Shown: positions 3,359-29,682, numbered from the stretch's first letter. The stretch: 64,000 nt of DNA from Verrucomicrobiia bacterium (GCA_963664225.1 OY760937.1:4768001-4832000), one strand, 5' to 3'. A program made the numbers and translations. Notes: generated from the sequence alone by a model not told the origin.

Positions 3359-3422
3359 GGTTAAAGAGAATTAGCGCACGGTTGCATTTGTTGCCTGACC
3401 ATTCGAATTGGGCGGAGTGAAA

Positions 3423-4433: not shown

Positions 4434-4474
4434 AATGCCTTATGGTTGGTGATGGGTTGATGGTTTAAGCGCGG

Positions 4475-10912: not shown

Positions 10913-13030
10913 CTATTTTCGTTCGATCAGGATGATGTCCGAGCTCTCTGTCCCCTCCAGGCGCGCAACGAGGCCGTTTTTCAAGAGAGCTTCACCGGCC
11001 AATTCTGCGCCCGCCACACTGCCATCCTCGCTCGTCACATTGTAGCGAGCGTCGGCGCGAAGACCTTCGAGCATAAACCGGTGCTCCTTTTCATCGGTCG
11101 TGCCACGGAATACAAACAGTGCTCCCTTCCCGGTGGATTCATCCCAATACTGGATACCATCCCAGTGCACACCATCGGGCCGGTCAGCGACGTGATGTAC
11201 ATCGGCATTGAGAATCAACGGACGCAACGCGGACTTGTAGAGCGCGAATTGGCGCTTGGCTGCGGTTCGCTGCTCAGGTGTCCACTTGGAGGTGTCGGTC
11301 ATGATGGTGCACCAACCCATCATTCCGCTACGCAGCATGTAAACGAAGTTGGCGAGGTTTTTGCCAGGATTGTTCGCGATATAGCATTCGCACTGCGCCG
11401 GAGGGAGAAGGAAGGAAGCGTCGTAAAAGGCCCGGCGGTTCGAGAGCGGATCGTAGGTGTCCGTGATGCTGATATAGTCCACCCGGCGAATGACGCCGAA
11501 ATCGACCATGCGCCCGCCATTGACGCAATCCTCAAACAGGAGTGCCGGATTCTCACGCCGAAGCGTGTCATAAATGCGGTAATAGGCTTCTGTGGCCCGG
11601 GCGGCAGCGTCAGTTCGTGAGGACGTGTGCAAATGGTTTGTACTCGAACAGGAATCGATAATCATGCGCTGGTCATGCTCCAGCAGGTCGAGCTTGTAGT
11701 CTTTAACCATCCGCCGCAGGGAATCCAGGCACCACTTCTCCGCGCGAGGATCGGCCAGGCAGACGGTTTCGCCTGTGAATTCACCGGGTTTCCAGTCAGA
11801 AGCGACCTTGCGGGTAAACCAGGCCTTCATTTCCGGATCGAAAACGCTCAGAGGCCGGTCGGGTCCGGTTTGATCGCGCTGGTTGCCCCCTTGAGTCCAC
11901 CCAACCCACAGACCGAATTTGAGCCCCATGGAGTGGGCGTAGTCGGCAATGGGAGCGAGTCCTTTTGGAAATTTTGTTGTTTCCGGGAACCAATCGCCGA
12001 CACCTCGAAACCAGCCAGCGTCGATGTGGAACATCTCCAAGCCCAAGTCCGCCGACTCGTCGATCATCGTTCGGGCCAGCTTTTCATCCACCGCCATTCC
12101 GCTTCCCCAACTATTGTTGACCAGCAAAGGATAGTGCTTGTCACGGGTTGGTGGACAAATGTTGGTCTTGATCCAGCGACGCATTTGGTTGCAGCCATCA
12201 TCCACTTCGCCCTGGTAGCAGCCGAGAAATACGGACGGGACACGCAGGGTTTGATCTGGCGCAATTCGTGCAAGGTAGCCTTCCTCAGGAGTCAGGCCCG
12301 CCTCGACATGCAGTTGAGATTGCTCGCGTTTGATCGCGATGCGCACACGACCACTCGACTCAATGCCCAAATACCAGCCGCACTTCCCCGCCGGATCCTG
12401 AATGGCAGTCCAGGGAATGGGCTCCTGCCTCTCATCGGGAGAATAGCCCGTGGAATCAAGCGTTTGGGTGTATCCATTGGTAACGTAATTATCGTAATGA
12501 ACGCCGACTTTTCCGGGCGTTCCTGCACCCTTCTCGATCCACCAATTCTCCAGAGTATGGCCATCAGGGGCGGCCACGCTGTCAAACACCAGCGAGGGTT
12601 GAAGGGGCAGTTGCACCTCCTGCGTGCCGCGATTCAAGATGCTCAACTCATGCTCAATGGGACCCGGACCTTTTGCGCCTTTCCAGACAGAGGTGAGTTC
12701 GAGCTTGGGTTCCTTGCAGCCAAAGACAAAGACATGGCCAAAGTAGGGGCCTGGCAAGTCGGCTTCGCGAATCAAACGCCATTCCAGGGAAAGCGTCTTT
12801 CCCGCAACCACGGCGGTTTGCACCAAAGGCATGATCCCAGCCCGGGCCGACGCAGGGGTCCACTCGGTTTTGCCTTTTGATCCGCTGAGGGAGACCACCT
12901 GGAGGGCTGAACCGGAAACCTCCAGACGCAAGGAGGTATCGGAGGTTTCGACGGTGGCGGCATTTGTAACACTGGCCATAATCGCAGCAGCCAGGATGGG
13001 GGAGCCAAGGAGGAGCAATCGTGTTTTCAT
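10913..13030 (-). CDS. GH36-like (alpha-galactosidase clan D) glycoside hydrolase, secreted
   Basis: VNNSW, HIDAGW, KFPKGL, GLKFGLWV and FEDCVNGGR motifs; C-terminal GH36C-like domain (LEGLRADARY). Confidence 0.75.
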   Translation of the reverse strand: MKTRLLLLGSPILAAAIMASVTNAATVETSDTSLRLEVSGSALQVVSLSGSKGKTEWTPASARAGIMPLVQTAVVAGKTLSLEWRLIREADLPGPYFGHVFVFGCKEPKLELTSVWKGAKGPGPIEHELSILNRGTQEVQLPLQPSLVFDSVAAPDGHTLENWWIEKGAGTPGKVGVHYDNYVTNGYTQTLDSTGYSPDERQEPIPWTAIQDPAGKCGWYLGIESSGRVRIAIKREQSQLHVEAGLTPEEGYLARIAPDQTLRVPSVFLGCYQGEVDDGCNQMRRWIKTNICPPTRDKHYPLLVNNSWGSGMAVDEKLARTMIDESADLGLEMFHIDAGWFRGVGDWFPETTKFPKGLAPIADYAHSMGLKFGLWVGWTQGGNQRDQTGPDRPLSVFDPEMKAWFTRKVASDWKPGEFTGETVCLADPRAEKWCLDSLRRMVKDYKLDLLEHDQRMIIDSCSSTNHLHTSSRTDAAARATEAYYRIYDTLRRENPALLFEDCVNGGRMVDFGVIRRVDYISITDTYDPLSNRRAFYDASFLLPPAQCECYIANNPGKNLANFVYMLRSGMMGWCTIMTDTSKWTPEQRTAAKRQFALYKSALRPLILNADVHHVADRPDGVHWDGIQYWDESTGKGALFVFRGTTDEKEHRFMLEGLRADARYNVTSEDGSVAGAELAGEALLKNGLVARLEGTESSDIILIERK

Positions 13031-13255
13031 GGTGTGAAGCCTAACTTAATGACAAGACCGGTCTTCGGCAATACTCGTTGACGTTTTTTTGGGATCGGGT
13101 TTGGCAAATGGCTGCCAAGTCCTGATAATGCAGCTTGGTTTCGGTGGTAAATCCCCGCGTGATGGGGCAAGGGATATGAAAAAAGGACCGCTTTTTGCAC
13201 CCGAAACCTCGCGGGAGATTTGTGCAAAAAGCGAACCGTTCGATCTGAAGAAAAT

Positions 13256-13330
13256 TGGCTCCAAAGGCAGGGCTCGAACCTGCAACCCATCGGTTAACAG
13301 CCGATTGCTCTACCATTGAGCTACTTTGGA
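13256..13330 (-). tRNA. tRNA-Asn (GTT)
   Basis: Reverse complement TCCAAAGTAGCTCAATGGTAGAGCAATCGGCTGTTAACCGATGGGTTGCAGGTTCGAGCCCTGCCTTTGGAGCCA forms a cloverleaf with GTT anticodon, GGTTCGA T-loop and encoded CCA. Confidence 0.97.
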
Positions 13331-13346
13331 ACCCAAGAGCGGGGAC

Positions 13347-13376
13347 AATCTACACAAGGCCCCATCGGGTCGTCAA
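13347..13376 (-). promoter_or_regulatory. Sigma70-type promoter of tRNA-Asn
   Basis: TTGACG-N18-TAGATT with an extended -10 TG, just upstream of the tRNA. Confidence 0.55.
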
Positions 13377-13602
13377 CACCCTTGTGCCTTTTTTTATGCT
13401 CTTGGTGCGGTCTTGTGAGTCAAGCCGGTGCGGGCAGGCCGGTTTGGCGAATCAGATGTGCCGGCAGACGCACACTTTTCAGGGAGGCGCGTTTATCGTT
13501 AGCTTTGGGCGCACGATACCGCAGCGGCCTGATGGGTAATGGATTATGCATCCGGACACAGGTAATCGATTTGGAGACGGAAAGCCGTTTGGGAATATCC
13601 GT

Positions 13603-13630
13603 TTGCATTTTATGCGGGGTTAAATAAACT
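13603..13630 (+). promoter_or_regulatory. Candidate sigma70 promoter of the ABC/SPFH/P-ATPase operon
   Basis: TTGCAT-N16-TAAACT ending 20 bp before the ATG at 13650. Confidence 0.4.
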
Positions 13631-13649
13631 GACAGATTCAAATTAGGAA

Positions 13650-14612
13650 ATGCGACAGTTTGCAACCATAGCAACCAACGCCTTCATGGAGTTGGTGAGA
13701 CAGCCGGTGTATCTGCTTCTAATGAGCAGTTCAGCGGTCTTCATGGTTTTTCTGGCGTGCGTTCCCTATTTTGGCTTTGGGGACGACCCAAAGATGCTCA
13801 AGGACACCGAATTGGCGGTGATGCTGCTGGCGGGCCTCTTTGGCGCGGTAATCAGCGCCGCGGCCTCCGTGGCGCATGAAATCCGTTCCGGAACGGCTCT
13901 GGCGGTTTTGTCCAAACCGGTTCGGCGGGGCCAATTTCTGCTGGCGAAATTTGCCGGAGTGGCCGCGGCATTGTCCTTGATGACTTATGTGAACGCGGTG
14001 ATGGCTTTGCTTGCGAGCCGGATGGCCTATGACGCCTATTCGGGGGTGGACACAGCGGCGCTGGGGATTTTTTCAGCGGCGGTGGTTGTCGCGTATGCCA
14101 TCGGGGGGTTCAGTAACTTTTTTCTGAAACGGCAGTTTGTGGCGGACGCGGTTTTCAGTCTTGTGGTGATGTTGACCATAGCGTTTGTCGTGATTACGAC
14201 CATGACGTCCCATAAGGAAAGTTTGAGCACGATCTCCAAAGTGGACTGGCGCCTGGTGCCCGCCTCGGTGTTGATATTGTTTGCCTTGTGGATTTTTGCG
14301 GGGCTGGCCATCGCTTGCTCCACGCGTTTTGAAATGATTCCGACGCTGGCGATTTGCAGTGCGCTTTTTCTGTTGGGGCTGATGTCGGATTACCTTTTTG
14401 GTCGGCCTTTGCAGAATGGGTCGATGTGGGCGGCGGTGCCTTATACCTTGTTGCCGAACTGGCAGTTGTTTTGGATGGCGGATACGATGGAACCTGGCAA
14501 GGCGGGGGTTCCCTTGTCGTATCTGGCGCAGGCACTGGGATATGTGGCCGGCTATTTGGGCGCCACACTGGCGGTGGCGCTGGCGTTGTTTGAGGATCGG
14601 GAGTTGAGCTGA
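13650..14612 (+). CDS. ABC-2 type transporter permease (PilI/XapB/NosY-like)
   Basis: Multi-TM protein with motif HEIRSGTALAVLSKPVRRGQFLLAKFAG and C-terminal LFEDREL. Confidence 0.8.
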   Translation: MRQFATIATNAFMELVRQPVYLLLMSSSAVFMVFLACVPYFGFGDDPKMLKDTELAVMLLAGLFGAVISAAASVAHEIRSGTALAVLSKPVRRGQFLLAKFAGVAAALSLMTYVNAVMALLASRMAYDAYSGVDTAALGIFSAAVVVAYAIGGFSNFFLKRQFVADAVFSLVVMLTIAFVVITTMTSHKESLSTISKVDWRLVPASVLILFALWIFAGLAIACSTRFEMIPTLAICSALFLLGLMSDYLFGRPLQNGSMWAAVPYTLLPNWQLFWMADTMEPGKAGVPLSYLAQALGYVAGYLGATLAVALALFEDRELS

Positions 14613-14614
14613 TT

Positions 14615-16495
14615 ATGGATCGAGACCGGAACATACAAAGTTTGGGTTTGGGAAACCTGTTTTTGCTGCTGTTTATCGGCGGGGCGACGCAAATGCTGGC
14701 GCTCTATGCCTCTTCGGCGACGGGGCAGGTCGGCGTTGTATTCCTTGCCATGGGCGTGCTGGTGGCGGCGGTGAGCGCCTTCCAGATGCGACTCAAAGCA
14801 CGGGAGAAGATCGAGCAGCTTGAATACGATGAGTTGAAGAAATCGGCCTCGGCTTCCGCGTTGTTTTCCCAGGAGGCGGACACCTTTCCGGCGCGGCGTT
14901 CCCGCGAGCAGTTCGACAAATGGTTTGTCCCCGGTTTTACGATTATATTGTGCGTCCTACAGGGGCTGGGGGCTTTTTTACTGTGGAAGTGGCTTGACCG
15001 TGATCAGGGTTTGAATACGGGCCGGGGAACGATAGCGCTGGCTTTGGCGTCACTTTTTTCGCTGATTTTTTTCATGCGGGGCAAATACGTGGCCGGTATA
15101 GCGCGTTTGGAAAATCATCGTCTGCTGCGGCCTGCCGCCAGTTATTTGCTGCTCGGATCGCTGATGACCCTGTTAATGGCGTTGGCGGAGGCAGTGGGTT
15201 ACTTCTCCTACCCGCATATTGACGTTATCGTGGCGCGCGTTCTGTGCGTGGTGCTGGGGTTTGTCGCTTTGGAGACGCTCATCACCCTGATTCTGGAAAT
15301 TTACCGCCCGCGCCTGAAAGGGCAGGCGGCGCGTCTGCTCTACGAGAGCCGTCTGATCGGACTTCTGGGTCAGCCTGGCGGGCTGATCACGACTGCGGCA
15401 CAAGCGCTGGATTACCAATTTGGATTCAAGGTTTCCGAGACGTGGTTTTATCGATTTGCGGAAAAGGCGCTGGCCTGGCTGGTTTTGTTGCAGTTGGGTG
15501 TGTTGCTGTTGTCCACTTGCGTGGTGGTGATCGAGGCGCCGGAGCAGGGTTTGCTCGAGCGCTGGGGACGCCCTGTGGCCGGGCGTGAAATTTTGGAGCC
15601 GGGCCTTCATCTCAAGTGGCCCTGGCCGGTGGACAAGGTTCACCGCTACCGGAGTCGCGAGGTTCACACTTTCTATCTTGGATTTGTTCCGGATCCGGAC
15701 GCGGACAGGGAAAAGGTCCTGGTCTGGACCAAGTCGCACTTCAAGGAAGAATATAACATGCTGGTGGCAAGCCGGGAGCAGGGTTATCTGGATCCGTCGA
15801 GCGCCGCGGGTGGCGAGCAGGTGGTGCCGGTGAATTTGATCTCCGTGAACATTCCCGTCCAATATCGGATCAAGGATTTGCATGCGTATGTTTACAAACA
15901 TAGCGAAGCCAACAATCTGTTGGAACTGTTGGCCAACCGCGCGTTGTCCCACTATTTGGTGAATGTCGATATTGACGACGTCATGGGCGCGGGACGGCTG
16001 GCTGCGGCGAAGAAATTGCGCGAGGAGATTCAGAAAACCGCGGACGAAAACGAGTTGGGCGTCGAAGTCATTTTCGTTGGGTTGCAGGGGATACATCCGC
16101 CTGTCAAAGTGGCGCCCGATTATGAAGCGGTGATCGGCGCGTTCCAGGAAAAGCAATCAAACATCCTGTCCGCCCAGGCGTATTGGGCGGAAAAGATACC
16201 GCAGGCGCACGCGGAGGCCTCGAACACCGTGCTCACAGCCTGGAGCGACAGCTATTCAAAGGTCACGATCGCGCAGGCTGAAGCCGCCCAATACACAAAC
16301 CAACTGGCCGCTTATGACGCTTCGCCTTCGGTTTACAAGGAGCGTTCCTATTTGGAAACCCTGGTTCGTGCCGTCGGGCCCGCCCGCAAATACGTCCTGG
16401 GGGTCACCAATACCCATGACATCATCTGGCTGAACCTCGAAGATAAAATCCGCAGTGACCTGCTGGATGTGCCGCTGCCCACTGGAAAAAAATAA
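14615..16495 (+). CDS. SPFH (HflK-like) protein with a long multi-TM N-terminal extension
   Basis: About 300 aa hydrophobic N-terminal region, then EQGLLERWGRP..LEPGLHLKWPWPVDKV, VQYRIKD and LGVEVIFVGLQGIHPP, plus a coiled-coil tail. Confidence 0.85.
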   Translation: MDRDRNIQSLGLGNLFLLLFIGGATQMLALYASSATGQVGVVFLAMGVLVAAVSAFQMRLKAREKIEQLEYDELKKSASASALFSQEADTFPARRSREQFDKWFVPGFTIILCVLQGLGAFLLWKWLDRDQGLNTGRGTIALALASLFSLIFFMRGKYVAGIARLENHRLLRPAASYLLLGSLMTLLMALAEAVGYFSYPHIDVIVARVLCVVLGFVALETLITLILEIYRPRLKGQAARLLYESRLIGLLGQPGGLITTAAQALDYQFGFKVSETWFYRFAEKALAWLVLLQLGVLLLSTCVVVIEAPEQGLLERWGRPVAGREILEPGLHLKWPWPVDKVHRYRSREVHTFYLGFVPDPDADREKVLVWTKSHFKEEYNMLVASREQGYLDPSSAAGGEQVVPVNLISVNIPVQYRIKDLHAYVYKHSEANNLLELLANRALSHYLVNVDIDDVMGAGRLAAAKKLREEIQKTADENELGVEVIFVGLQGIHPPVKVAPDYEAVIGAFQEKQSNILSAQAYWAEKIPQAHAEASNTVLTAWSDSYSKVTIAQAEAAQYTNQLAAYDASPSVYKERSYLETLVRAVGPARKYVLGVTNTHDIIWLNLEDKIRSDLLDVPLPTGKK

Positions 16496-16525
16496 TTTCG
16501 TCCCTAATCAGACACTGTTGAGACT

Positions 16526-17431
16526 ATGAAGAAAAATCCCATCACGTTTGTAACCGCCGCCGTGCTGGCCGTGATTTTTGGCCTGATGCTGTTCACCTTT
16601 CAAGTGCGCCAGACCGAGATTGCGGTGTTGACCACATTCGATAAATACTCCCGGAGCATCAGCGACCCGGGCTTCAACTGGAGGCTGCCATGGCCGATTC
16701 AAAAGGTTTATCGCTTCGATAACCGCGTGCAAAATTTCGAGCGTAAATTCGAGCAGACCACGACCCGGGACGGCATCAACGTGTTGATCACGGTCTTTGC
16801 CGGGTGGCAGATCGCCGACCCCCGGAATTTCCTGGAGAGTTTCAGCGGGGATTCCCTGAAGGCGGAGCAGGCGCTGGAACCGCTGGTGCGGACCATGAAG
16901 ACAGGGGTGCTTGGCCAGCACGCGTTTGGAGACCTGATTTCGACGAATGCCTCGGAATTGAAGTTCGACATCATCGAAGAGGAGATGCTTGCGAACATCA
17001 AAGACCAGGCGCGAAAGAATTACGGCATCGATGTGCGATTCGTGCGCATCAAGCAGTTGGGCCTGCCGGAGAGCATCACGACGAAGGTGTTCTCGCGCAT
17101 GAAAGCGGAACGTCAGACCCAGGTCACGCGGTTTTTGTCCGAAGGCGAACGGGAGGCCAAGATCACCCGGGCCAAGGCGGACAGCACGGCCAACCAGATC
17201 CTTTCGGATGCGCGCGCCTCCGCAATACAAATCACAGGCCAGGCGGAGGCCAAGGCTTCGGAATACTACAAGGTGCTCCAGCAAAATCCTGAACTTGCCA
17301 ATTTCTTATTCCAGCGCAACGCCCTGGAGGCATCGCTTAAGGATCGCGCCACGCTGATTCTGGACCAGCAGACCCCTCCGTTTAACATGTTGGGTGGCGT
17401 GGTAAAACCGGCCTCCAGCAAAGCTCAATAA
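16526..17431 (+). CDS. hflC: Protease modulator HflC-like SPFH protein
   Basis: Single N-terminal TM; PGFNWRLPWPIQKV, YGIDVRFVRIKQLGLP and VFSRMKAER...SEGEREA motifs. Confidence 0.85.
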   Translation: MKKNPITFVTAAVLAVIFGLMLFTFQVRQTEIAVLTTFDKYSRSISDPGFNWRLPWPIQKVYRFDNRVQNFERKFEQTTTRDGINVLITVFAGWQIADPRNFLESFSGDSLKAEQALEPLVRTMKTGVLGQHAFGDLISTNASELKFDIIEEEMLANIKDQARKNYGIDVRFVRIKQLGLPESITTKVFSRMKAERQTQVTRFLSEGEREAKITRAKADSTANQILSDARASAIQITGQAEAKASEYYKVLQQNPELANFLFQRNALEASLKDRATLILDQQTPPFNMLGGVVKPASSKAQ

Positions 17432-17438
17432 TCGCGCG

Positions 17439-18557
17439 ATGAATCCGGATCAACACTCTCACCATTCGAAGCCGGAGGCGGTGGCTCCTGTCGCGCACGC
17501 GCATGAGCACGAAGCCCCGGCGCCGGCGGAAGATGCCGCAACGCGGGCACTGGCCGAGGCCCTTGGCAGCAGCTTCAAAATTGTCAAACTGCTGATGTTT
17601 GCGCTGGTGGTCGTATTCATAGGGTCGGGCATTTTTACGGTCAATCCCGGCGAGGTGGCGGTGATCCTGCGCTTCGGACGGCCCGTGGGCGTGGGCGCGG
17701 ATCAGATGCTCAAACCGGGACTGCATTGGGCCTTTCCCTATCCGATCGATGAGGTGATGAAGATCGCCGTGGGCCAGAGCCGGACGGTGGTGGGCCGCGC
17801 CCCATGGGCGCCGGATCTTGACAATCCCAACGCCGTGTCGATGGGGCCGGTTTTGAGGCCGGGAATTGACGGGTGCGCATTGACGGGGGATGGAAACATC
17901 ATTCACGCGCGCGCCACGCTCAAATACCGGCTGCAACCGACCGGGATATTGAATTACGCCTTCAACTACACCGATGTCACCAACCTGCTTGAGAACGTCT
18001 TGAATAATTCCCTTTATTACGCCGCCACTCATTTCACAGCGGAGGAGGCGATATTCCGTGACAAGGTGGCCTTCATGGATCTGGTGCATAAAAGGCTCTC
18101 GCAATTGATCGATGAGACGGGCGTGGGCGTGGCGATTGAATCGCTGGATGTGGAAACCAGCGCGCCGCTGGACGTGCGCGCCGCCTTTAACGCGGTGCTT
18201 GAGGCCCAGCAAATGTCCCGCACCCGCATCAGCGAGTCCGAGACGTATGCCCGCAGCACCACCAATGCAGCCCTGGGCCAGGCCTCCGTGGTCTGGAATG
18301 ACGGCATTACGCGCAGCAATCAGCTTGTGCGAACCGTGGATGCCGAGGCCAAATCGTTCAGTGACCAACTCCCGTATTTCGAGGCGAATCCGGATTTGTT
18401 CAAGCAACGGCTTCTTGCGGCAACAATGCAGCGGGTTCTGACGAACGCGCAGGACAAGTTCTTTATTCCAAACCGGGCCGATGGGAACACGCGCGAGCTG
18501 CGACTCCAGTTGAATCGCGAGCCTCAAAAATCCAGGAGTGAAACCTCCGCCCCGTAG
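17439..18557 (+). CDS. hflK: Protease modulator HflK-like SPFH protein with His-rich N-terminus
   Basis: VILRFGRP, PGLHWAFPYPIDEV, LTGDGNIIH and VRAAFNAVLEAQQ motifs; N-terminus HSHHS...HAHEHE. Confidence 0.8.
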   Translation: MNPDQHSHHSKPEAVAPVAHAHEHEAPAPAEDAATRALAEALGSSFKIVKLLMFALVVVFIGSGIFTVNPGEVAVILRFGRPVGVGADQMLKPGLHWAFPYPIDEVMKIAVGQSRTVVGRAPWAPDLDNPNAVSMGPVLRPGIDGCALTGDGNIIHARATLKYRLQPTGILNYAFNYTDVTNLLENVLNNSLYYAATHFTAEEAIFRDKVAFMDLVHKRLSQLIDETGVGVAIESLDVETSAPLDVRAAFNAVLEAQQMSRTRISESETYARSTTNAALGQASVVWNDGITRSNQLVRTVDAEAKSFSDQLPYFEANPDLFKQRLLAATMQRVLTNAQDKFFIPNRADGNTRELRLQLNREPQKSRSETSAP

Positions 18558-18574
18558 TATATTACAGGCATGTT

Positions 18575-20629
18575 ATGCAGGTAACTTCATTAATCAGTCG
18601 GGAAAAAGAGGCGTGCTGCGATCACGACCACGATCACGATCACGACCAAGGGCATGATCATCACCACGATCATGATCACTCAGGTCACGATCACGAGCAC
18701 ACGCCGGTCCATCTTTGGCAGACCATCATCGGTTTGATTCTGGTGATTAACTCCTTTGTGGTGGAGTGGGTTTTTGGCAAGGACAGCGGTGTCGCGGGAT
18801 TGAGCGCGATGGTGGGCACCATTATTCTCGGGTACCCGATCGTGCTCACCTCGATCAAAGATCTCCGAAAAGGGGTTTTGAGCATCAACGAACTGGTCAC
18901 CATCGCGGTTCTGGCGGCCTTTGCCTCGGGGAATTACCAGACGGCGGGTGTGGTCGCCTTTTTCATGCTTTTGGGCGAGATCATCGAAACACGCACGGCG
19001 GACGGGGCGCGGGCGTCCATCGAGTCGCTGATCAAACTCACACCAACCAAGGCTCGACGCATCAAGGGTTCGGCTGAGGAGGAAGTGGCGGCGAAGGATC
19101 TTGCGGTGGGCGATTTGATTCGAGTGCGGCCCGGAGACAATATCGCGGCTGACGGTGTCATTGCATCTGGGCAGGGTTCCTTCAACCAGGCCAATATCAC
19201 GGGGGAATCGCTTCCGGTGGATAAGAAGCCCGGGGACGATGTGTTTGCCGGCACCATCAATCTGACCGGCGTCATCGAGATCAAGGTCACTCGCGCCGGT
19301 GAGGATACGACACTGGGCCGGGTCCGGGATTTGATCCTGGCGGCGGAAAAAACGAAGTTGCCGATCATGCGCATCATCGACCAGTACATGGGCTACTACA
19401 CGCCCCTGGTGCTGGTGTTGGCGGCCATGGTCTGGGCCTTTACAAAGGATTTGAACAGCGTGATCTCCGTGCTGATCGTTTCCTGCCCGTGCGCCTTTAT
19501 TCTGGCGACACCGACGGCGATGGTGGCCGCGTTGTCCGTGGCGGCCCGATTGGGCATATTGATCAAAAACGTCAGCGACATCGAAATGGCGGCCCGGATC
19601 AACGCCTTTATTTTTGACAAGACAGGCACGCTGACCACGGGAAATCTGGTCGTGAGCCGGTTGGCGCCATTGAACGATACAACGCCGGCGGAATTATTGC
19701 GCGTGGCGGCATCGGCCGAGCGATACAGTAACCATCCGACGGCGAAAGCGCTGACCCAACTTGCTGGCGAGGCATCCGTACCCCTGGCCGAGCCGAAGGA
19801 TTTTGCGGAAACAGCCGGGCGCGGCATTCGGGCGCAAGTCGAGGGACGCACCGTTTTGGCCGGGCGCGCCCAGTGGCTCAAGGACAATGGGGTGGGCGGG
19901 GACTTTCTCAAGGCAGTGGATATCAACGAAACCGAGGGGTTCAGCCTCATTTTTGTCGCGCGCGACGGTCATTGCATCGGCTGGGTGGGACTCCAGGACG
20001 CCACGCGGGCGGAAGCTCGTGAATCGCTGGCGGCGCTCACGGAATGCGGTGTGCGGCGGATCGCCATGGTGACCGGGGATCGCCAGCCGGTGGCCGCCCG
20101 TGTCGCGCGTGAGATTGGCTGCGAAGAAGTGGCGGCGGAATGTCTGCCGCAGAATAAGGTGGAATTTGTGCGTCAAATGAAGGCGCGCGGATATCGCGTG
20201 GCTGTGGTGGGTGATGGTGTGAACGACGCCCCGGCGCTGGCTGCGGGCGACATGGGCATTGCCATGGGCGCGGCGGGCAGCGAGGTGGCCATCCACAGCG
20301 CGACGATTGCCCTGATGAACAACGATCTGCGGCGGCTCCCGTTTTTGATCAAGCTTTCGCGCAGCACGCGTTCAGTGATCAATCAGAACTTCATTTTTGG
20401 AGTGTTTTTCATTCTTGGCGGATGGACGCTTTCCTCGTTTGGATTGCTGCATCCGATCGTGGCGGCCATGCTGCACAATGTGGGATCGCTGGTGGTGGTG
20501 TTCAACAGCGCGCGCCTGGTGCGCCAGGGCGAGGAGTTGGACCCCTTCCAGGGGGTGCGTCGGCAGGCGGCACGTGATGCGGCGTCAGAACTGGCGGCCA
20601 AACCGGCGGTGAGCGGCGCATCCGTATAA
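18575..20629 (+). CDS. Heavy-metal translocating P1B-type ATPase
   Basis: His/Asp-rich N-terminus, TGES, TM motif SCPC, DKTGT, HP, TGD and GDGVNDAPAL. Confidence 0.95.
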   Translation: MQVTSLISREKEACCDHDHDHDHDQGHDHHHDHDHSGHDHEHTPVHLWQTIIGLILVINSFVVEWVFGKDSGVAGLSAMVGTIILGYPIVLTSIKDLRKGVLSINELVTIAVLAAFASGNYQTAGVVAFFMLLGEIIETRTADGARASIESLIKLTPTKARRIKGSAEEEVAAKDLAVGDLIRVRPGDNIAADGVIASGQGSFNQANITGESLPVDKKPGDDVFAGTINLTGVIEIKVTRAGEDTTLGRVRDLILAAEKTKLPIMRIIDQYMGYYTPLVLVLAAMVWAFTKDLNSVISVLIVSCPCAFILATPTAMVAALSVAARLGILIKNVSDIEMAARINAFIFDKTGTLTTGNLVVSRLAPLNDTTPAELLRVAASAERYSNHPTAKALTQLAGEASVPLAEPKDFAETAGRGIRAQVEGRTVLAGRAQWLKDNGVGGDFLKAVDINETEGFSLIFVARDGHCIGWVGLQDATRAEARESLAALTECGVRRIAMVTGDRQPVAARVAREIGCEEVAAECLPQNKVEFVRQMKARGYRVAVVGDGVNDAPALAAGDMGIAMGAAGSEVAIHSATIALMNNDLRRLPFLIKLSRSTRSVINQNFIFGVFFILGGWTLSSFGLLHPIVAAMLHNVGSLVVVFNSARLVRQGEELDPFQGVRRQAARDAASELAAKPAVSGASV
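18614..18700 (+). repeat. Imperfect GAYCAY hexamer repeats encoding CCDHDHDHDHDQGHDHHHDHDHSGHDHEH
   Basis: gatcacgaccacgatcacgatcacgac... read directly from the sequence. Confidence 0.8.
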
Positions 20630-20710
20630 TACAATGATGAAACCTGACGCCACACTATTGACGGTCATGGATGTGCGATTCCGGACATCGACAACGCGGA
20701 GGATTCAACC

Positions 20711-21922
20711 ATGAGTTTGGAAGAAGTTTCTCAAGCGGCCGCTTCCCAGGAAGTCGTCGTGGCCGTTCGCGGACTGACGAAGATCTTCAAGGATTTCTGG
20801 GGTCGGCCCAAGGCCCGTGCGGTTGATCAGGTGGACTTTGAAGTGCGTCGGGGCGAGGTTTTCGGGTTGCTGGGTCCGAATGGATCGGGCAAATCGACCA
20901 CGGTAAAACTTTTGCTCGGTTTACTGCATCCCAGCAAGGGGCATATCGAGGTGTTTGGCCATTCGCCGCGGCATGTGGCCACGAAGGCGCGCATCGGTTA
21001 TCTGCCCGAGGAATCTTACTTGTATCGTTATCTGGATTCCAAGGAGACGCTCACTTTCTTTGGCAGCCTTTTTGACATTGCCGATGAGGAGCGTCGCAAG
21101 CGCGCGGAGCAATTGCTGGAGATGGTGGGGCTTAGCCAGGTGCAATCGCGCACGGTCGGAGAGTTTTCCAAGGGCATGCAGCGGCGCATCGGACTGGCGC
21201 AGGCCCTCATCAACGATCCTGACCTCATTATTCTCGATGAGCCGACCTCGGGCCTGGACCCGATTGGTTGCCGCGAGGTCAAGGACCTGATCGTTGCGCT
21301 GGCGCGGCGCGGCAAAACAATCATTTTGAGCAGTCATTTGCTCGCCGATGTCGAGGACGTGTGCGACCGGGTGGTGATTTATTACGGTGGAAAAATCCAG
21401 GCCATGGGGGCCCTGAAGGATTTGCTGGCCACGCCCGATTCCCTGCGCATCACCACGCCCAGCCTGCCACGGGAGACAATGCAGAAGGTGCTGGAAATCA
21501 TCCGACACGATGTGGATGCGGACCGGGTGCGGGTGGATGTGCCGACGCAAAACCTGGAAAGCTATTTTTTAAGCGTGGTGCAAAAAGCCCGCCAGAACGA
21601 ACAGCACACCTCGGGCGCCACATCGGGCAGCCATGTGGCGAATTATCTGGCCGGTCCGGAAACGGCGCCGCAATCGGACAAGATTCTGGAGCGGCTGGCT
21701 GCGCCCGCGCCCTCGGCCCCAGGGCCCGAGCCAGCGCGCGTGGCCACTCCCGCAGCGGGGCCCGCTGTTCAGGTTCAGAAACTGGAGGCATTGGCAAAAA
21801 CGTCCGCGCCCGCGCCTGCAACCCCGCAGTCGGCTCCCCCGAAGCCCGAGGAAAAGACGACACCGTTGGATTTGAAAAAGGCGGATGAAAAACTCGCCTC
21901 TCTTCTGGGTAAACCCAAGTGA
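20711..21922 (+). CDS. ABC transporter ATP-binding protein (PilH/XapD-like) with Pro/Ala-rich C-terminal tail
   Basis: Walker A GPNGSGKST, signature FSKGMQRR, Walker B IILDEPTSGLD and H-loop SSH. Confidence 0.93.
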   Translation: MSLEEVSQAAASQEVVVAVRGLTKIFKDFWGRPKARAVDQVDFEVRRGEVFGLLGPNGSGKSTTVKLLLGLLHPSKGHIEVFGHSPRHVATKARIGYLPEESYLYRYLDSKETLTFFGSLFDIADEERRKRAEQLLEMVGLSQVQSRTVGEFSKGMQRRIGLAQALINDPDLIILDEPTSGLDPIGCREVKDLIVALARRGKTIILSSHLLADVEDVCDRVVIYYGGKIQAMGALKDLLATPDSLRITTPSLPRETMQKVLEIIRHDVDADRVRVDVPTQNLESYFLSVVQKARQNEQHTSGATSGSHVANYLAGPETAPQSDKILERLAAPAPSAPGPEPARVATPAAGPAVQVQKLEALAKTSAPAPATPQSAPPKPEEKTTPLDLKKADEKLASLLGKPK

Positions 21923-22022
21923 ACAGGCGACTCTGGCGCGAATGGCAAACGGACACGGTGAGACCAATTTTTCCAAATCGAATATTCACGGCACGGCCTG
22001 ACCGCCGAAATGCCGCATTGTC

Positions 22023-23414
22023 ATGAAACGTTTGCTGGCCATTGCATTTTTGACCCTGAGAGCGGCGTTCCGCTACCGGCTGGTTCTGGTGCTCCTGACC
22101 TTGTTGCTGGGAATCGTGGTGGCTCTGCCGCTGCTCATCAAAGATGACGGAACGGCGCGCGGTTTCACACAGATTTTGCTCACCTACACACTGTCCGCGA
22201 TCACAGGGTTGCTTGGATTTACCACGTTGTGGCTGGCCTGCGGCACGCTGGCAAGGGAAGTCGAGGAGTGCCAGTTGCAGATGGTGGCGGTCAAACCGGT
22301 GGCTCGCTGGCAAATCTGGATCGGCAAGTGGCTGGGCATTTTGATGCTCGACGCGCTGCTGCTCATTCCTTCGAGCGGGGCCGTTTATGGTCTCCTGGTG
22401 TGGCGTGCGCAACATTTGCCCGAGGCGCAGCAAACCATCCTGCGCAACGAGGTGCTCGTGGCCCGCAGCGGCGTCAAGGAAATGTCCCGGGATTTGAATC
22501 CAGTGATTGAGCAGACCTTCCAGGAATATTTAAAGCAAAACTCCGTCGCCCCGGAGTACCGGCAATCGGTGAAGGATCAGATCCGCGAGCAGGTGAAATC
22601 CGAGTTTCAAATTGTGCGCTCCAGCTATGCCCGCCGCTGGGAAATCGACTTGGGTCCGGCCAAAGCACATCTCAAGGACCAGCCGCTTTTCATTCACACA
22701 AAATTTTCCGTCGCCCAAAAAACAAGCACTCTGGAGGATGAATCCCTCTATCCAACGATCTGGCAGGTTGGGGTTCCTGGCACGACCAATTCCTGGCAAT
22801 TCCGCCGAAAGTTGCCTGCGGATACGATGAACGAGATTCCCATTCCCGCAAATCTCTTCGACGCCAATGGCCGGATCACCATCGAATGCGCCAATGCCGG
22901 GGAAGTGGATTTGCTTTTTTTGCTGGATGATGGATTGGAGGTGCTCTACCGGGACGGCGGGTTCACGGTTAATTTTGCGCGGGGTGTGGCGATCATTTTT
23001 TGCTGGATGGCGCTGCTGGCGGCGATCGGTCTGGCGGCCGCCAGTTTCCTCTCCTTTCCAGTGGCTGCTTTTGTGGCCATGGGAATTCTGGTCGTCGGAT
23101 TTTCCAGCGGCACCATGGCCCAGGTGCTTGAGGAAGGCGGCATTTCGGGGGTCAACCATGAGACCGGACGTGTGGCCTCACCGAGTCTGATCGATATGGT
23201 GGCGGTGCCGATTTTCAGCGGAATGCTCAAGGTGATTAATCTGGTGCAAGGGTTCTCCCCGATCGACAACCTCAGTTCGGGACGGACCATTTCCTGGGGG
23301 CAATTGGGCCTGGCCGTGCTGCAAATCCTGGGGGTGATGGGCGGAATCTTTGGCTGCGTGGGCATCTACCTGTTCACGCGTCGCGAATTGGCCGCCGCCC
23401 AAGGGGGACAATGA
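22023..23414 (+). CDS. Second ABC-2 type permease with a large extracytoplasmic loop
   Basis: REVEECQLQMVAVKPVARWQIWIGKWLG motif, about 190 aa soluble insert and C-terminal FTRRELA. Confidence 0.8.
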   Translation: MKRLLAIAFLTLRAAFRYRLVLVLLTLLLGIVVALPLLIKDDGTARGFTQILLTYTLSAITGLLGFTTLWLACGTLAREVEECQLQMVAVKPVARWQIWIGKWLGILMLDALLLIPSSGAVYGLLVWRAQHLPEAQQTILRNEVLVARSGVKEMSRDLNPVIEQTFQEYLKQNSVAPEYRQSVKDQIREQVKSEFQIVRSSYARRWEIDLGPAKAHLKDQPLFIHTKFSVAQKTSTLEDESLYPTIWQVGVPGTTNSWQFRRKLPADTMNEIPIPANLFDANGRITIECANAGEVDLLFLLDDGLEVLYRDGGFTVNFARGVAIIFCWMALLAAIGLAAASFLSFPVAAFVAMGILVVGFSSGTMAQVLEEGGISGVNHETGRVASPSLIDMVAVPIFSGMLKVINLVQGFSPIDNLSSGRTISWGQLGLAVLQILGVMGGIFGCVGIYLFTRRELAAAQGGQ

Positions 23415-24910
23415 TGCAAACCCGGTATTACAAACCCTTGCTGGTATTTCTGGCTCTGATTCTTCTGCTGGGGGCCTCCTTCGCGCAGAAGTCTCTGAAT
23501 CAGGCGCGCACCGACCTGGGATTGACTCGCGTGGCGCCACTGGATAACGCGCCGCCGGTGCTTGCGTTTACAACGGTGGCCCTGGGCGGCTTCCGGGGTT
23601 TGATCGCAAACGCGCTCTGGGTGCGGGCGATGGACTTGCAGGATAACGGCAAGTATTTCGAGATGGTACAACTGGCGGATTGGATCACAAAACTGCAACC
23701 GCATTTGCCTGCGGTCTGGGTTGTTCAGGCCTGGAATATGGCCTACAATATTTCGATCAAATTCCAGAATCCGCGTGACCGCTGGATCTGGGTGGAACGC
23801 GGCATTTCGCTGCTTCGGGATGACGGTCTGCGGTGGAATCCCCAGGAACCGAGCATTTACCGCGAGCTGGCCTGGTTCTTCCAACACAAAATCGGCCAGA
23901 ATATGGACGAGGCCCACCTCTATTTTAAACAGGCCTGGGCTGAACAAATGATCGCCGTGCTCGGAAACACCAACCGGGTGGATTTTGACGTCCTCATCAA
24001 GCCGCAGACTGCGGACCAGCAGGAACGGGCAAAGGTTTTGCGTGAAAGATACAAAATGGATCCGGTGGTCATGAAGGCTGTGGACGAGCGCTATGGACCG
24101 CTGGATTGGCGGCTGCCGGAGAGCCACGCCATTTATTGGGCCTGGCTGGGCCTGGAAAAGGCGAAGAATGAGGAGCTGATTACCTTGCGCCGGGTCATTT
24201 ATCAATCCATGCAACTGGCCTTTCAACGCGGCCGGCTGGTTACCTCAAAATATGGCAGGGTGTTTTCATTCGGACCGAACCTGGATATTGTGGAGAACGC
24301 AAACCGGGCCTACGAAGACATGATGGATCAGGATGTCGAAAATCGGGATCACATCACGCGGGGGCATCGTAATTTTTTGCGGGATGCCGTATATTTTCTC
24401 TATTCGAACAATCGCATGGCGGAAGCGGCCAAATGGTTTGCTTACCTGGGAAAACAATATCCCAATGACCACCTTTTGGATGGCCAGCTAGGCACCCTAC
24501 CCGGGAAGATATCGCTCGACGATTATGCCTTGAGCCGCATCTCTGAAGATGTGGGCGAAACTTCGGTCGATCGCACCAAGCTGGTTTTGCGGGGCCTTTA
24601 CGTCAACTATTTCAACAGCCTGGCCCTCGGCTTTTCTGATAACGCGGTCAATTATGAGTTCATGGCCCGAAAGATCCACGCGCGTTACGAAAAGAAAATC
24701 GAGGGGCAGGAGCAACGGGTGGGCCTGCCCGGACTCGCCCAGATCAAGAAGGAAGTGTTGGACGACAGGCTGGGTCCTTCCAGCGACTTGCCGCTGCAAA
24801 TCAAGGCGCAGTTGCGCACGGAATTGGTCTTCCGGCGGAATCGAGCACCAACGCCCCGGCGGCCACCGTCATCACCAATACTCCGGCGCAATAATTCCAG
24901 CAATTTTTGA
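23411..24910 (+). CDS. Membrane-anchored helical-repeat protein, PilG/XapA-like (true stop probably 24894 after a 1-bp deletion near 24826)
   Basis: N-terminal TM/signal; LGGFRGLIANALWVRA...ITKLQP...AWNMAYN...GLRWNP...YRELAW motifs; ATGA overlap with the permease. The family resemblance is from memory. Confidence 0.65.
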   Translation: MMQTRYYKPLLVFLALILLLGASFAQKSLNQARTDLGLTRVAPLDNAPPVLAFTTVALGGFRGLIANALWVRAMDLQDNGKYFEMVQLADWITKLQPHLPAVWVVQAWNMAYNISIKFQNPRDRWIWVERGISLLRDDGLRWNPQEPSIYRELAWFFQHKIGQNMDEAHLYFKQAWAEQMIAVLGNTNRVDFDVLIKPQTADQQERAKVLRERYKMDPVVMKAVDERYGPLDWRLPESHAIYWAWLGLEKAKNEELITLRRVIYQSMQLAFQRGRLVTSKYGRVFSFGPNLDIVENANRAYEDMMDQDVENRDHITRGHRNFLRDAVYFLYSNNRMAEAAKWFAYLGKQYPNDHLLDGQLGTLPGKISLDDYALSRISEDVGETSVDRTKLVLRGLYVNYFNSLALGFSDNAVNYEFMARKIHARYEKKIEGQEQRVGLPGLAQIKKEVLDDRLGPSSDLPLQIKAQLRTELVFRRNRAPTPRRPPSSPILRRNNSSNF

Positions 24911-24995
24911 ACGCAAGTTTCAGATTGATGGAAACGTATCCTGCCTCTAGTCTCCCTCCATCTCGGGCGCTGAATAGAGCTGTCCCGTGCGCCTG

Positions 24996-25571
24996 ATGGC
25001 CAGACAAGATAAAAGTTCGACAGCGTTGTTTTTGAAGGAATTGGTGCTTCGCCCCCGCCAGTTGGGGGCTATTGCCCCCAGTTCCCGCTTTTTGGCTCAT
25101 GCCATGGCCCAATGGATCGTGCCCCAATCGGACGGTTATGTGCTTGAGTTGGGGCCGGGCACGGGCGCCGTCACTGAAGTGCTTTTGGAGCATGGGTTGC
25201 CCCAAAACCGGTTGATCGCGGTGGAAAAGTCCCCCATTTTAGCGGCACATTTGCGTGAGCGCTATCCCCAGGCAACGATCATTCATGGGGACGCCATGCA
25301 TTTGGAAGCCCTTCTCAAAGAGCATATGCCAAATGCTCTGCCGCTGCGTGTGGTTATTTCCAGTCTGCCTTTGTTGAATTTCCCGGCGGATTGCGCCGAG
25401 GCGATCACTTGCGGGATTCTGGCGGTTCTGGGCGTGAAAGGGCGATTGGTGCAGTTCAGCTACCAGATACTTCGAACGAATCCCAAACTTCTCCGGGCGT
25501 TTCACTTGGTGAACACCCGGGTGGTGTGGCGCAACCTGCCCCCCGCGCGGGTTAGTGTTTACGAGAAATAA
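24996..25571 (+). CDS. Class I SAM-dependent methyltransferase, phospholipid N-methyltransferase (PmtA)-like
   Basis: GAIAPSSRFLA, VLELGPGTGAVT, ISSLPLL, VQFSY and WRNLPPARV motifs. Confidence 0.85.
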   Translation: MARQDKSSTALFLKELVLRPRQLGAIAPSSRFLAHAMAQWIVPQSDGYVLELGPGTGAVTEVLLEHGLPQNRLIAVEKSPILAAHLRERYPQATIIHGDAMHLEALLKEHMPNALPLRVVISSLPLLNFPADCAEAITCGILAVLGVKGRLVQFSYQILRTNPKLLRAFHLVNTRVVWRNLPPARVSVYEK

Positions 25572-26316: not shown

Positions 26317-26790
26317 TCACTTAATAGGCGAACTTCCGATCGGTGTGAAATTGCCCTCCTCACAGCAGCGAACGAAGCCTTCCGTCACGGATTTGAGTTC
26401 CTCCCATCGAGCGCGGATCGCGTGCGCCTCTGTTTTTGTGATATGGCTGTCGGCGGCGGCATTGGCCACCACTTCCAAAAGGTCCGCAAATTCCTGAATG
26501 ATCTCGTTGGTGGCCGGGATCAGAAAATGGGAGTGGGAATGGGTCTTTTTGGGATTGCGTATGAAAAAGCCGCCTGACTTTTCGCAAAGCCATTGGACGG
26601 GCCGGGTATCGCCGCTTAATTGGACGAGCTTATCCACACGGTCAAGCGGGTTTGAAGAACCGCTTCCAGCGCCTTCGCCCGGCGGCTCGGACCATTTGTA
26701 GAGCATGGACAGGGAGAGGCCCAATTGCCCGGCGGCCTCCTTCAAATTGGTTTTCTGAAAAACCTCGCGTAAAAGCTGATGGGATTCCAT
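26317..26790 (-). CDS. Phage CII-like (CP76 family) HTH regulator
   Basis: N-terminal HTH (KEAAGQLGLSLSMLYKW), NPLDR, and C-terminal AAADSHITKTEA helix pattern. Confidence 0.6.
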   Translation of the reverse strand: MESHQLLREVFQKTNLKEAAGQLGLSLSMLYKWSEPPGEGAGSGSSNPLDRVDKLVQLSGDTRPVQWLCEKSGGFFIRNPKKTHSHSHFLIPATNEIIQEFADLLEVVANAAADSHITKTEAHAIRARWEELKSVTEGFVRCCEEGNFTPIGSSPIK

Positions 26791-28223: not shown

Positions 28224-29627
28224 TTATTTGGCGCCGCTTCCCCAAACGACGGCGGGGATGGTGCGAAGGAGGATTTTGCAGTCCAGCCAGATGGACCAAT
28301 TGTCGATGTATTCCAGATCGAGCCGCACCCATTCCTTGAAATCAGTCACTTCGTTGCGTCCGCTGACCTGCCACAGGCAGGTTAATCCGGGTTTGACACT
28401 CAGACGGCGCCGGTGGGCGATGTCGTCAAAACGCTTGGTTTCATCGACGGGCAGGGGACGCGGTCCCACCAGGCTCATCTCGCCGCGCAACACGTTGATT
28501 AACTGTGGAAGTTCATCGATGCTGAAGCGGCGCAGGATCCGGCCAACAGGCGTGATGCGCGGGTCGTGAGTGATTTTGAAGACCGGTCCGGACATTTCAT
28601 TCATGGCCTCCAGCTCGTGTTTGCGCTGGTCGGCATCGGTGCCCATGGAACGGAACTTATACATCTGGAAAGGTTTGCCGTTTAATCCGCTGCGCTGTTG
28701 TTTGAAGAAAATGGGGCCGGGCGAGGTGAGCTTGATCGCGATGGCTGCGATGATAAAGAAGACGGATGTCGCTGCCAGGAGACACAAGGCGCCAATCAAA
28801 TCCAGAATATGTTTGGCCACCGCTTCCCAGGATTCCTCAGGTGTGGAGCGAAATACCAGCATGGGCCGGTTGGCAAAATCATCGAGTGTGGTGCGGGAAA
28901 TCTGGGTTTTAAAAAAATCCGCCAGAAGCCAGGCCTCCACGCCCTCAAGTTCGCACAACTGAATGGCTTTTTCGATCTGGCCGAAATAAGCATGCCGGGC
29001 GTTGAGAATGACGCCGTTGGCCGAGTGCACATGGAGCAATTCGGGCAGTTTTTCGATGGGTTCGTGGTTGATATCCAACTGGTCCAGAATTTGGAGCCTC
29101 CATGGGGATTGCGCGCGGAGTTCTTCTTTTAGCCGCGTATTATCGCTGGAACTGCCCACCAGAATAAAGCGGCGCTGGACTTGGGATTTTCCCCAATCGC
29201 TTTGCAGCCACCAACGGATGATTTGCTCCTCGAGCAGGATCAATCCCGCGCTGATCAGGCCGGACAGTATGATGACCGAACGGGCCACTCCCTGCTCGCG
29301 CACCAGAAATAATCCCAAAACCATCGCCACCGTTGTCAATGTGCTCGCTTTGAATACTTGCCAGGCGCAGGCGCGGCGCGAGGAAAGTGCGGGCCGGGAA
29401 TAAAAGCCATGCCAGCCGAGTGACACCGGTCCCGCCAGCATGATGATGGGAAACAGCCAATAATAGCCGTTTATCGGAGATATGACATCCGCGCCGCCGA
29501 AGATGCGAAAGATCGGGAGGTTCCAATGCGAACGCAGGAAATGAGCCAGCCATAAGGCTGCGGCAAATAGGATGGCATCCGTCAATCGGCGGATTTGCGC
29601 GTAAACTTGTTTGCGTTGGCTCAGCAT
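28224..29627 (-). CDS. Polyprenyl-phosphate glycosylphosphotransferase (priming sugar transferase, WcaJ/WbaP family)
   Basis: N-terminal TMs; KFRSM, DPRITPVGRILRRFSIDELPQLINVLRGEMSLVGPRP and KPGLTCLWQVSGR motifs. Confidence 0.93.
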   Translation of the reverse strand: MLSQRKQVYAQIRRLTDAILFAAALWLAHFLRSHWNLPIFRIFGGADVISPINGYYWLFPIIMLAGPVSLGWHGFYSRPALSSRRACAWQVFKASTLTTVAMVLGLFLVREQGVARSVIILSGLISAGLILLEEQIIRWWLQSDWGKSQVQRRFILVGSSSDNTRLKEELRAQSPWRLQILDQLDINHEPIEKLPELLHVHSANGVILNARHAYFGQIEKAIQLCELEGVEAWLLADFFKTQISRTTLDDFANRPMLVFRSTPEESWEAVAKHILDLIGALCLLAATSVFFIIAAIAIKLTSPGPIFFKQQRSGLNGKPFQMYKFRSMGTDADQRKHELEAMNEMSGPVFKITHDPRITPVGRILRRFSIDELPQLINVLRGEMSLVGPRPLPVDETKRFDDIAHRRRLSVKPGLTCLWQVSGRNEVTDFKEWVRLDLEYIDNWSIWLDCKILLRTIPAVVWGSGAK

Positions 29628-29682
29628 TCCAGATTCCCAGTTTGCCAATTAAAAAGGAGAAACAGGCCTCTCGCAAGTCTAT

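Follow-up and report, generated by a model that had tools for sequence, protein, structure and literature searches.

Three HflK/C paralogs are genetically coupled to a P1B-type ATPase and an ABC exporter in a conserved verrucomicrobial gene block

We analysed a gene block within a 64,000-nt stretch of DNA from a Verrucomicrobiia bacterium (GCA_963664225.1, OY760937.1; hereafter the window, corresponding to positions 4768001-4832000 of contig C1 of genome G000), in which three paralogs of the SPFH proteins HflK and HflC are encoded together with a P1B-type ATPase and an ATP-binding cassette (ABC) exporter. Eight open reading frames (ORFs), g1 to g8, all on the + strand, span 13650-24910, separated by 2, 30, 7, 17, 81 and 100 nt except for g7 and g8, which share 4 nt (ATGA). 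These coordinates confirm an earlier note, made from the sequence alone, that described eight co-oriented, tightly spaced genes with one ATGA overlap. The same note had seen neither ftsH nor hflX in the window, and the genome agrees: ftsH lies at genome positions 5570162 and 2506963 and hflX at 3100648, all outside 4768001-4832000. Genes were assigned to families by scoring Pfam and NCBIfam models against their curated cut-offs, and the resulting features are listed here in whole-window coordinates, which are used throughout unless genome positions are named (TM, transmembrane).

13457..13475, + strand: candidate operator, inverted repeat TGTGC-N8-GCACA(C), about 175 nt upstream of g1
13650..14612, + strand: g1, ABC-2 permease, 320 aa, with about 8 hydrophobic segments
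14615..16495, + strand: g2, HflK paralog fused to a six-helix N-terminal membrane domain, 626 aa
16526..17431, + strand: g3, HflC paralog, 301 aa, with a single N-terminal TM helix
17439..18557, + strand: g4, HflK paralog, 372 aa, with a cytoplasmic tail containing 6 His and one TM helix
18575..20629, + strand: g5, P1B-type ATPase without an HMA domain, 684 aa, with a His/Asp-rich N-terminal tail, CPC in TM4 and His634 in the last TM helix
20711..21922, + strand: g6, ABC ATPase, 403 aa, with a Pro/Ala-rich C-terminal tail
22023..23414, + strand: g7, second ABC-2-like permease, 463 aa, with a non-hydrophobic insert of about 190 residues (approximately residues 127-320)
23411..24910, + strand: g8, TPR-like helical-repeat protein, 499 aa, N-terminally anchored or secreted

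Comparison with related genomes demonstrates that g1-g8 is genuine and strongly conserved as a membrane system, one that has yet to be characterised and whose components are genetically coupled. We sampled 31 genomes of the same order and a further 150 of the phylum; these relatives are named mostly as Verrucomicrobiia metagenome-assembled genomes, and some homologs are labelled Limisphaerales or Pedosphaera. Full-length g2 is present in 30 of the 31 same-order genomes, the remaining one (G007, 87% complete) having only a 364-aa SPFH ORF. At the order level, g1-g2-g3-g4-g5 are colinear to the contig limits in 24/24 loci (two of which, L024 and L032, are one record) and the whole g1-g8 run is found in 14; three loci (L037, L041 and L046) extend about 8 kb beyond g5 without g6-g8. 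A single-protein scan of genome contigs yielded 4 loci only, and a metagenome search, from which the best 80 of 584 loci were taken, returned sequences all at 46-62% identity and gained no range beyond the phylum. Gene order in these 80 metagenome loci matches that of the order-level loci. In 27 of them the sequence continues for 8.5 kb or more past g2; 21 of these contain g1-g8, 5 end at g5 and 1 ends at g6. Twenty more distant loci were fetched at 25-40% identity, one of them cut inside g3. All 19 that reach far enough hold g2, g3, g4 and g5, colinear in 17 and with the pump upstream instead in L063 and L065; g1 precedes g2 in 10. The g6-g7-g8 run follows the pump in 9 of these distant loci and g4 in one more, L051 has only g6 after g5, and seven with enough DNA have no g6-g8. 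The flanking genes of the window are absent from every related locus compared and no recurrent gene family was found in the flanks of 40 loci, so that the unit is bounded at g1 and g8. Because the same gene order recurs at 25-60% identity with unrelated flanks, the arrangement lies far beyond chance, and the view of the eight genes as a conserved unit is borne out. A literature search, with subscription journals and supplements outside its reach, did not find a description of the block, in line with the earlier claim that no characterised system of this make-up was known.

The strictest association is between the pump and the SPFH trio. In the 150 phylum genomes, 57 of which encode the long g2, pump scores are bimodal, with one class at no less than 489 bits and the other at no more than 416. 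The subtype with the higher scores is present in 58 genomes, namely the 57 with full-length g2 and G175, where a diverged relative of g2 precedes g3, g4 and g5 at the locus, and in none of the other 92. The pump adjoins g2 in 55 of the 57 genomes and the remaining two are contig-broken assemblies. The ABC part follows a wider distribution: g8 is found in 88 of the 150 genomes. Every one of the 57 with full-length g2 has it, 40 of them at a distance of no more than 12 kb from g2 and 17 at another place. We fetched 12 loci in which g8 is remote from g2 and observed a g6-g7-g8 run with no SPFH gene nearby in seven; L172 reads g1-g6-g7-g8, and in L169, L173, L178 and L179 g8 stands without adjacent g6-g7. 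Likewise, all five genomes whose locus lacks g1 carry a g1 ortholog elsewhere. These SPFH-free g6-g7-g8 loci, the L172 arrangement and the displaced g1 orthologs identify g1, g6, g7 and g8 as an older ABC module, with g2-g5 sitting between g1 and g6 in the window. The block is therefore two nested modules, A (g2-g5, the trio and pump) and B (g6-g8 plus g1, an ABC exporter with a TPR-like partner). Projected gaps have medians of 6, 22, 2 and 27 nt between successive genes from g1 to g5 and of -1 nt between g7 and g8, and g5-g6 is the loosest junction, with a median of 52 nt and more than 200 nt in 12 of 53 loci. Two genomes carry two g2-g5 copies, G018 on C7 and C3 (L045/L046) and G100 at C1:861148 and C1:1639287 (L059/L060); in both, the second copy has no g6-g8 after it.

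The three SPFH proteins belong to a lineage of their own. Pfam finds Band_7 (PF01145) in g2, g3 and g4. The best NCBIfam model is HflK (TIGR01933) for g2 at 134.6 bits and g4 at 111.3 bits, against a cut-off of 159.4, and HflC (TIGR01932) for g3 at 104.1 bits, against a cut-off of 134.4. All three thus miss the equivalog cut-off, as is typical of the copies in related clusters (about 90-150 bits), whereas canonical copies in relatives reach 183-308 bits. The best matches among solved structures are E. coli proteins of the same families, with g2 residues 403-596 matching HflK (7vhp_E, 4e-20), g3 matching HflC (7vhp_G, 1e-19) and g4 matching HflK (7vhp_E, 1e-19). We built a quick IQ-TREE phylogeny of 83 SPFH sequences (LG+G4, SH-aLRT support only), rooted on the prohibitin-like pair of the genome. 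An HflC superclade (SH-aLRT 98) comprises canonical HflC (95) and the g3 clade (98), and an HflK superclade (97) comprises canonical HflK (97), the SPFH part of g2 (g2C; 100) and g4 (99). The g2C, g3 and g4 clades are each monophyletic, show similar inner branching, and lie beside rather than inside the canonical HflK and HflC of the same phylum. As both the equivalog score and placement in the canonical clades fail, we term the trio HflK/C paralogs and not HflK/C; the tree substantiates a paralogous lineage distinct from housekeeping HflK/C, and public annotation of relatives as 'protease modulator HflK' probably mislabels these proteins.

Within the trio, g2 has the most unusual architecture. 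Hydropathy and a structural model place six extra hydrophobic N-terminal helices before the HflK-type anchor, giving 7 TM helices in all; in the model, six long helices lead through a conserved motif to the anchor helix, the SPFH domain (Band_7 at residues 305-522) and a coiled coil, and Foldseek matches the model to HflK (2e-15). The segment just ahead of the anchor helix, YRPR..ESRL..PGG..ALDYQFGFKVS, is strongly conserved and, from the even number of helices preceding it, would be cytoplasmic. The N-domain family comprises 918 representative clusters; among the 150 members listed the domain is N-terminal in long proteins (about 580-790 aa) and shorter rows look like fragments, and an Atlas search with the domain gave no score above 0.82. 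The cytoplasmic tail of g4 (17439-17560) is His-rich, as it is in L030, L033, L035, L040 and L043 (4-13 His), and at such loci the pump tail is His-rich too wherever g5 could be checked. A constant metal site in the g4 tail was considered and rejected, the His-rich form being present in 6 of 41 tails.

The relationship to HflK/C raises the alternative that the trio does no more than serve as the FtsH-modulating HflK/C of this lineage, enlarged by one K subunit, with FtsH rather than the pump in the cage and the transporters as FtsH substrates or co-regulated envelope genes, a reading that we consider unlikely. The genome has nine Band_7 matches, and their neighbourhoods, inspected by eye, suggest one prohibitin-like pair, one NfeD-flotillin pair, a further pair and an isolated gene. 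Strong matches to the HflK and HflC models are confined to the trio, which is thus the only set of HflK/C-like proteins here, making an FtsH link possible in this genome; two ftsH genes are present, 0.78 and 2.3 Mb from the block. Likewise, 22 of the 31 relatives have no canonical copy above the cut-off, the trio falls inside the HflK and HflC superclades, g2 is predicted to fold like HflK, and public pipelines apply the protease-modulator label. Against this alternative, a canonical hflKC pair is present alongside the trio in 9 of the 31 relatives, including the same-genus genome G001 (G001:C95, L161) though not G000: canonical hflK scores above the cut-off (183-308 bits) at a separate locus besides the cluster copies, and an HflC-like ORF adjoins it in all seven such loci fetched. 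The trio also scores below both equivalog cut-offs, is never adjacent to ftsH in the loci examined and always accompanies the g5 pump subtype, and the six-helix domain of g2 has no HflK counterpart. The earlier note had taken its proposal to fail if these proteins were the sole FtsH-binding HflKC of the genome; they are the sole HflK/C-like proteins in this genome, but belong to a separate lineage that coexists with the canonical pair in those nine relatives.

Among known systems, the E. coli HflK/HflC-FtsH complex (7vhp, 7wi3 and 9cz1/9cz2) comes nearest to the trio. The N-terminal anchor, periplasmic SPFH domain and long coiled coil are common to both, and a hetero-oligomeric ring or nautilus-shaped assembly bounding a membrane patch, as described in PMC12048511, is likely a shared principle. 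The E. coli complex has two types of subunit and the trio has three, one of which carries a further six-helix membrane domain; the genetic partners of the trio are a P1B ATPase and an ABC exporter, not ftsH or hflX.

The pump itself is a P1B ATPase of mixed signature. It scores 557.6 bits with the heavy-metal P1B model TIGR01525 (cut-off 346), has no HMA domain detectable with Pfam or NCBIfam, and carries 13 His within its first 44 residues together with DKTGT, TGES and CPC. Among 40 orthologs, of which one or more is a duplicate record, none lacks DKTGT or TGES, and the TM4 motif is CPC in 33, the other seven reading CPS, CPA, CPV (twice), IPS, VPA and LPC. The His of the last helix (TM6) is present in 36, being replaced by Tyr or Gln exactly in the four CPS, CPA and CPV cases. 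The variants lacking CPC (L038, L045, L046, L047, L051, L059 and L064) retain the catalytic motifs and gene context, and a His-rich tail occurs in 0/7 of them versus 25/33 CPC forms. The earlier description of a His-rich P1B metal ATPase accordingly holds for the window protein as a P1B enzyme with a His-rich tail, but the tail is not constant across orthologs. Copper pumps of the P1B group are marked by YN and MxxSS, zinc pumps by Lys and Asp, and cobalt pumps by SPC and HEGxT. The g5 protein combines CPC with H-N-x-G-S, does not retain the YN and MxxSS positions when aligned to CopA, and lies at much the same distance from CopA (337 bits), the P1B-4 pump 7qbz (326) and ZntA (294). Where CPC and the TM6 His are kept, these two features and the His-rich tail point to a cation that is probably a divalent transition metal. 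The genome encodes 8 P1B ATPases, and a tree of g5 orthologs with the other P1B pumps of the genome separates 21 of 22 orthologs, at an SH-aLRT of 84 only, and leaves L064 unplaced.

These features could instead describe a metal-resistance or homeostasis operon with no defined complex; Zn/Co/Cd-type ions would leave through the P1B pump and a second toxic compound through the ABC exporter, and the role of the SPFH proteins would be limited to membrane protection under stress. The P1B signatures DKTGT, TGES and CPC with their His-rich tails would fit, as would the His-rich g4 tails in 6 loci and a complement of 8 P1B ATPases, which suggests a metal-rich lifestyle. We nevertheless judge this account rather improbable: neither a metal-sensing regulator nor a riboswitch turned up next to the block, a single gene order maintained at 25-40% identity across classes is rare for resistance islands, the cluster is retained in the 7 of 40 orthologs whose metal-site residues are gone, and the pump subtype never occurs without the trio.

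Module B has the make-up of an ABC-2, or type-V, exporter, combining an ATPase of the DrrA/NosF/ABCA group (g6) with ABC-2 permeases. The g1 permease matches PF12679 (ABC2_membrane_2) at 32.1 bits, above the cut-off of 27.2; g7 matches it weakly, at 19.9 bits and below the cut-off, and always lies between g6 and g8 in the loci compared. Sequence searches of the PDB with g1 and g7 found no solved relative. The g6 protein matches PF00005 and scores 215.8 bits with DrrA and 205.4 bits with GldA, both under the equivalog cut-offs, and its nearest solved domains are those of ABCA7, ABCA4 and ABCA1 (about 230-206 bits), followed by NosF (162). PADLOC reported only a generic ABC-ATPase likeness for g6, and the block was accordingly rejected as a known defence system. 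No Pfam family covers g8, which has more than 4500 homologs, all called 'hypothetical protein' in the names shown among the 120 listed. Pfam TPR models match the g8 family weakly, in at most 5 of 24 members (TPR_17), and a profile search of the PDB with the family gave no match. The g8 model is all-alpha (pLDDT 84.8); its best structural matches are generic TPR domains at Z 12.6-10, under the caution line of about 13 for helical repeats, and Foldseek returned no match at E <= 0.001. An N-terminal hydrophobic helix is present in 24/24 aligned members.

Two known ABC systems offer comparisons for module B. NosDFY(L) joins an ABC-2 permease, a NosF-like ATPase and a periplasmic partner in an ABC system that works with metal in the periplasm. 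At the family level only, the block shares with it a permease of the NosY Pfam family and a NosF-like ATPase (g6 versus NosF, 162 bits); it differs in having a TPR-like g8 where NosD is a beta-helix, two different permeases and an ATPase nearer the ABCA type, and no nos genes lie near the block. The earlier note had likened the exporter to Myxococcus PilGHI and Geobacter Xap, which also pair an ABC-2 type exporter with an extra protein of unknown role. This likeness is unsupported. Pfam analysis of 21 flanking ORFs (window 301-39394), reaching about 13 kb to each side of the block, detected nothing related to pilins or pili, and the nearest types to g6 are DrrA/GldA, NosF and ABCA. The matches of g8 to PilF (Z 11.4) and PilW (Z 11.0) are those of generic TPR proteins, and the function of PilGHI is itself unproven according to PMC6060248.

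We regard as very unlikely a role in managing membrane lipid or shape, with an ABCA-like type-V exporter moving a lipid or lipid-linked molecule, the SPFH ring shaping a microdomain and the P-type ATPase energising or regulating rather than detoxifying, which would suit the proximity of the g6 ATPase domain to the ABCA7/4/1 lipid transporters, the degenerate metal site of some pumps and the restriction to PVC-type bacteria, but is opposed by the weakness of ATPase-domain similarity as a guide to substrate, by the identity of g5 as a P1B and not a P4 ATPase with CPC in most orthologs, and by the lack of any conserved lipid-synthesis gene beside the block.

We favour, with moderate confidence, a reading in which the block is one membrane system of two modules and the SPFH assembly has the g5 pump as its private client or partner. 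This one-system reading draws on the order conserved amid unrelated flanks, the strict co-occurrence of pump and trio, the separate paralog lineage and the presence of g8 in every genome with full-length g2, and also on the tight gaps, a conserved palindrome upstream of g1 and precedents for scaffold-transporter pairing. Gene content, paralogy, strict co-occurrence and conserved order are demonstrated here; a ring, its contact with the pump, the metal carried and the ABC substrate are inferred, as is the cage that the earlier note had proposed to enclose pump and exporter in place of FtsH. In module A, K' (g2, with its extra six-helix domain), C (g3) and K (g4) would assemble as a hetero-oligomeric SPFH ring or cage, placed by analogy with HflK/C on the periplasmic face of the inner membrane, with the g5 P1B-type ATPase as its dedicated client. 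Module B would be a type-V (ABC-2) exporter that combines two dissimilar permeases with a TPR-like protein anchored in the membrane, and module A would have been recruited to this older and more widespread machine. In the working mode that we consider most likely, the SPFH assembly would create a bounded membrane patch, stabilise the pump and set it beside the ABC/TPR machine, so that ATP-driven cation export would be coupled in space to the envelope substrate of the ABC/TPR module. A complex prediction for g5 with the g2 N-domain (residues 1-300) scored 0.00, a value with no bearing for or against contact.

Several observations weigh against this one-system reading. Modules A and B lie at separate places in 17 of the 57 genomes, and g8 occurs without full-length g2 in another 31, so that the ABC part is independent of the SPFH trio there; the earlier expectation that the SPFH/P-ATPase and ABC halves are co-conserved therefore stands for co-occurrence (57/57) and for adjacency in 40, and fails for the separated loci and for genomes with the ABC half alone. 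The loose g5-g6 junction allows two separate transcripts. Metal transport may not be the conserved essence of the system, because 7 of 40 pump orthologs have lost CPC, four of these also lack the TM6 His and none has a His-rich tail. With no canonical HflK/C in this genome, the trio may still serve FtsH. Finally, most of the genomes counted are mutually related and the counts overstate their independence.

The closest functional analogy for module A is the PacL1-CtpC pair, which forms metal efflux platforms in mycobacteria. In PMC9374683, PacL1 is required for normal levels of the P1B pump CtpC, with which it shares an operon and membrane foci, and is proposed to stabilise CtpC in these foci; it is a small DUF1490 protein with Glu/Ala repeats, some members have a metal-binding tail, and the foci are flotillin-independent. 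The likeness is functional only: PacL1 is not an SPFH protein, its system has no ABC partner, and DUF1490 (PF07371) is matched by none of g1-g8 in Pfam. Other SPFH proteins are wired by operon or contact to one membrane transporter-like partner, as in flotillin-associated rhodopsins, stomatin-NfeD operons and the stomatin-aquaporin 1 entry 9zd2. The flotillin-associated rhodopsins described in PMC10308929 lose key transport residues and keep their gene context, resembling the 7 of 40 g5 orthologs that have lost transport residues in an intact context. These systems involve other SPFH subfamilies and clients, and in none of them do three SPFH paralogs occur with both a P-type ATPase and an ABC exporter.

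A more elaborate form of the preferred two-module system, which we hold to be doubtful, has the SPFH paralogs forming a closed periplasmic chamber over the pump and the ABC/TPR machine, with the pump releasing its cation inside, the ABC complex acting as a mechanotransducer and not a pore, and the TPR protein loading or assembling an envelope client. Such a chamber would serve as a private compartment for metallation or assembly, found only in PVC-type bacteria, and would be the first bacterial SPFH cage with transporters, not a protease, as clients. To our knowledge, FtsH is the only well-established client of bacterial HflK/C-type SPFH proteins. Genetics alone names non-FtsH partners here, as the pump subtype never occurs without its three paralogs, making the block a clean, testable case for SPFH cages that organise transporters; it might also account for the stabilisation of P1B pumps or for their coupling to events in the periplasm.

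Upstream of g1, the palindrome listed above recurs 74-348 nt before the gene in 41 of 94 related loci, those with at least 250 nt of upstream DNA, which suggests a dedicated operator and a transcript starting before g1. The genome holds two exact matches; the second was rejected as an operator and attributed to chance, lying inside an ORF. Rfam detected only a tRNA over 12900-25200, with no known riboswitch or leader, Pfam found no metal-sensing regulator among the flanking ORFs, and a sigma-70 scan was uninformative, giving 4 promoter-like sites where 5.0 were expected. Terminator scanning was uninformative too, as the strongest candidate, a hairpin followed by a T-run, lies at 25060-25083 inside the next ORF, a PmtA-like phospholipid N-methyltransferase gene (24987-25571, + strand) that starts 76 nt after g8; this gene is not conserved beside the block in relatives.

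The remaining neighbours belong to other functions. A tRNA-Asn (GTT) gene at 13256-13330 (- strand) lies in the 620-nt gap between a GH36 gene and g1. Further upstream, a Bat/MoxR-type operon at 1284-5413 (- strand) encodes BatA-VWA, DUF58, MoxR AAA ATPase and DUF4159 proteins and is followed by genes for a TPR-peptidase and a rhamnosidase and by the GH36 gene. Downstream, a small ORF at 26317-26790 (- strand) contains a phage CII (CP76)-like regulator domain, and genes at 28224-31451 (- strand) for a sugar transferase, a DUF3485 protein and an exosortase (EpsH family) suggest a PEP-CTERM/exosortase polysaccharide locus.

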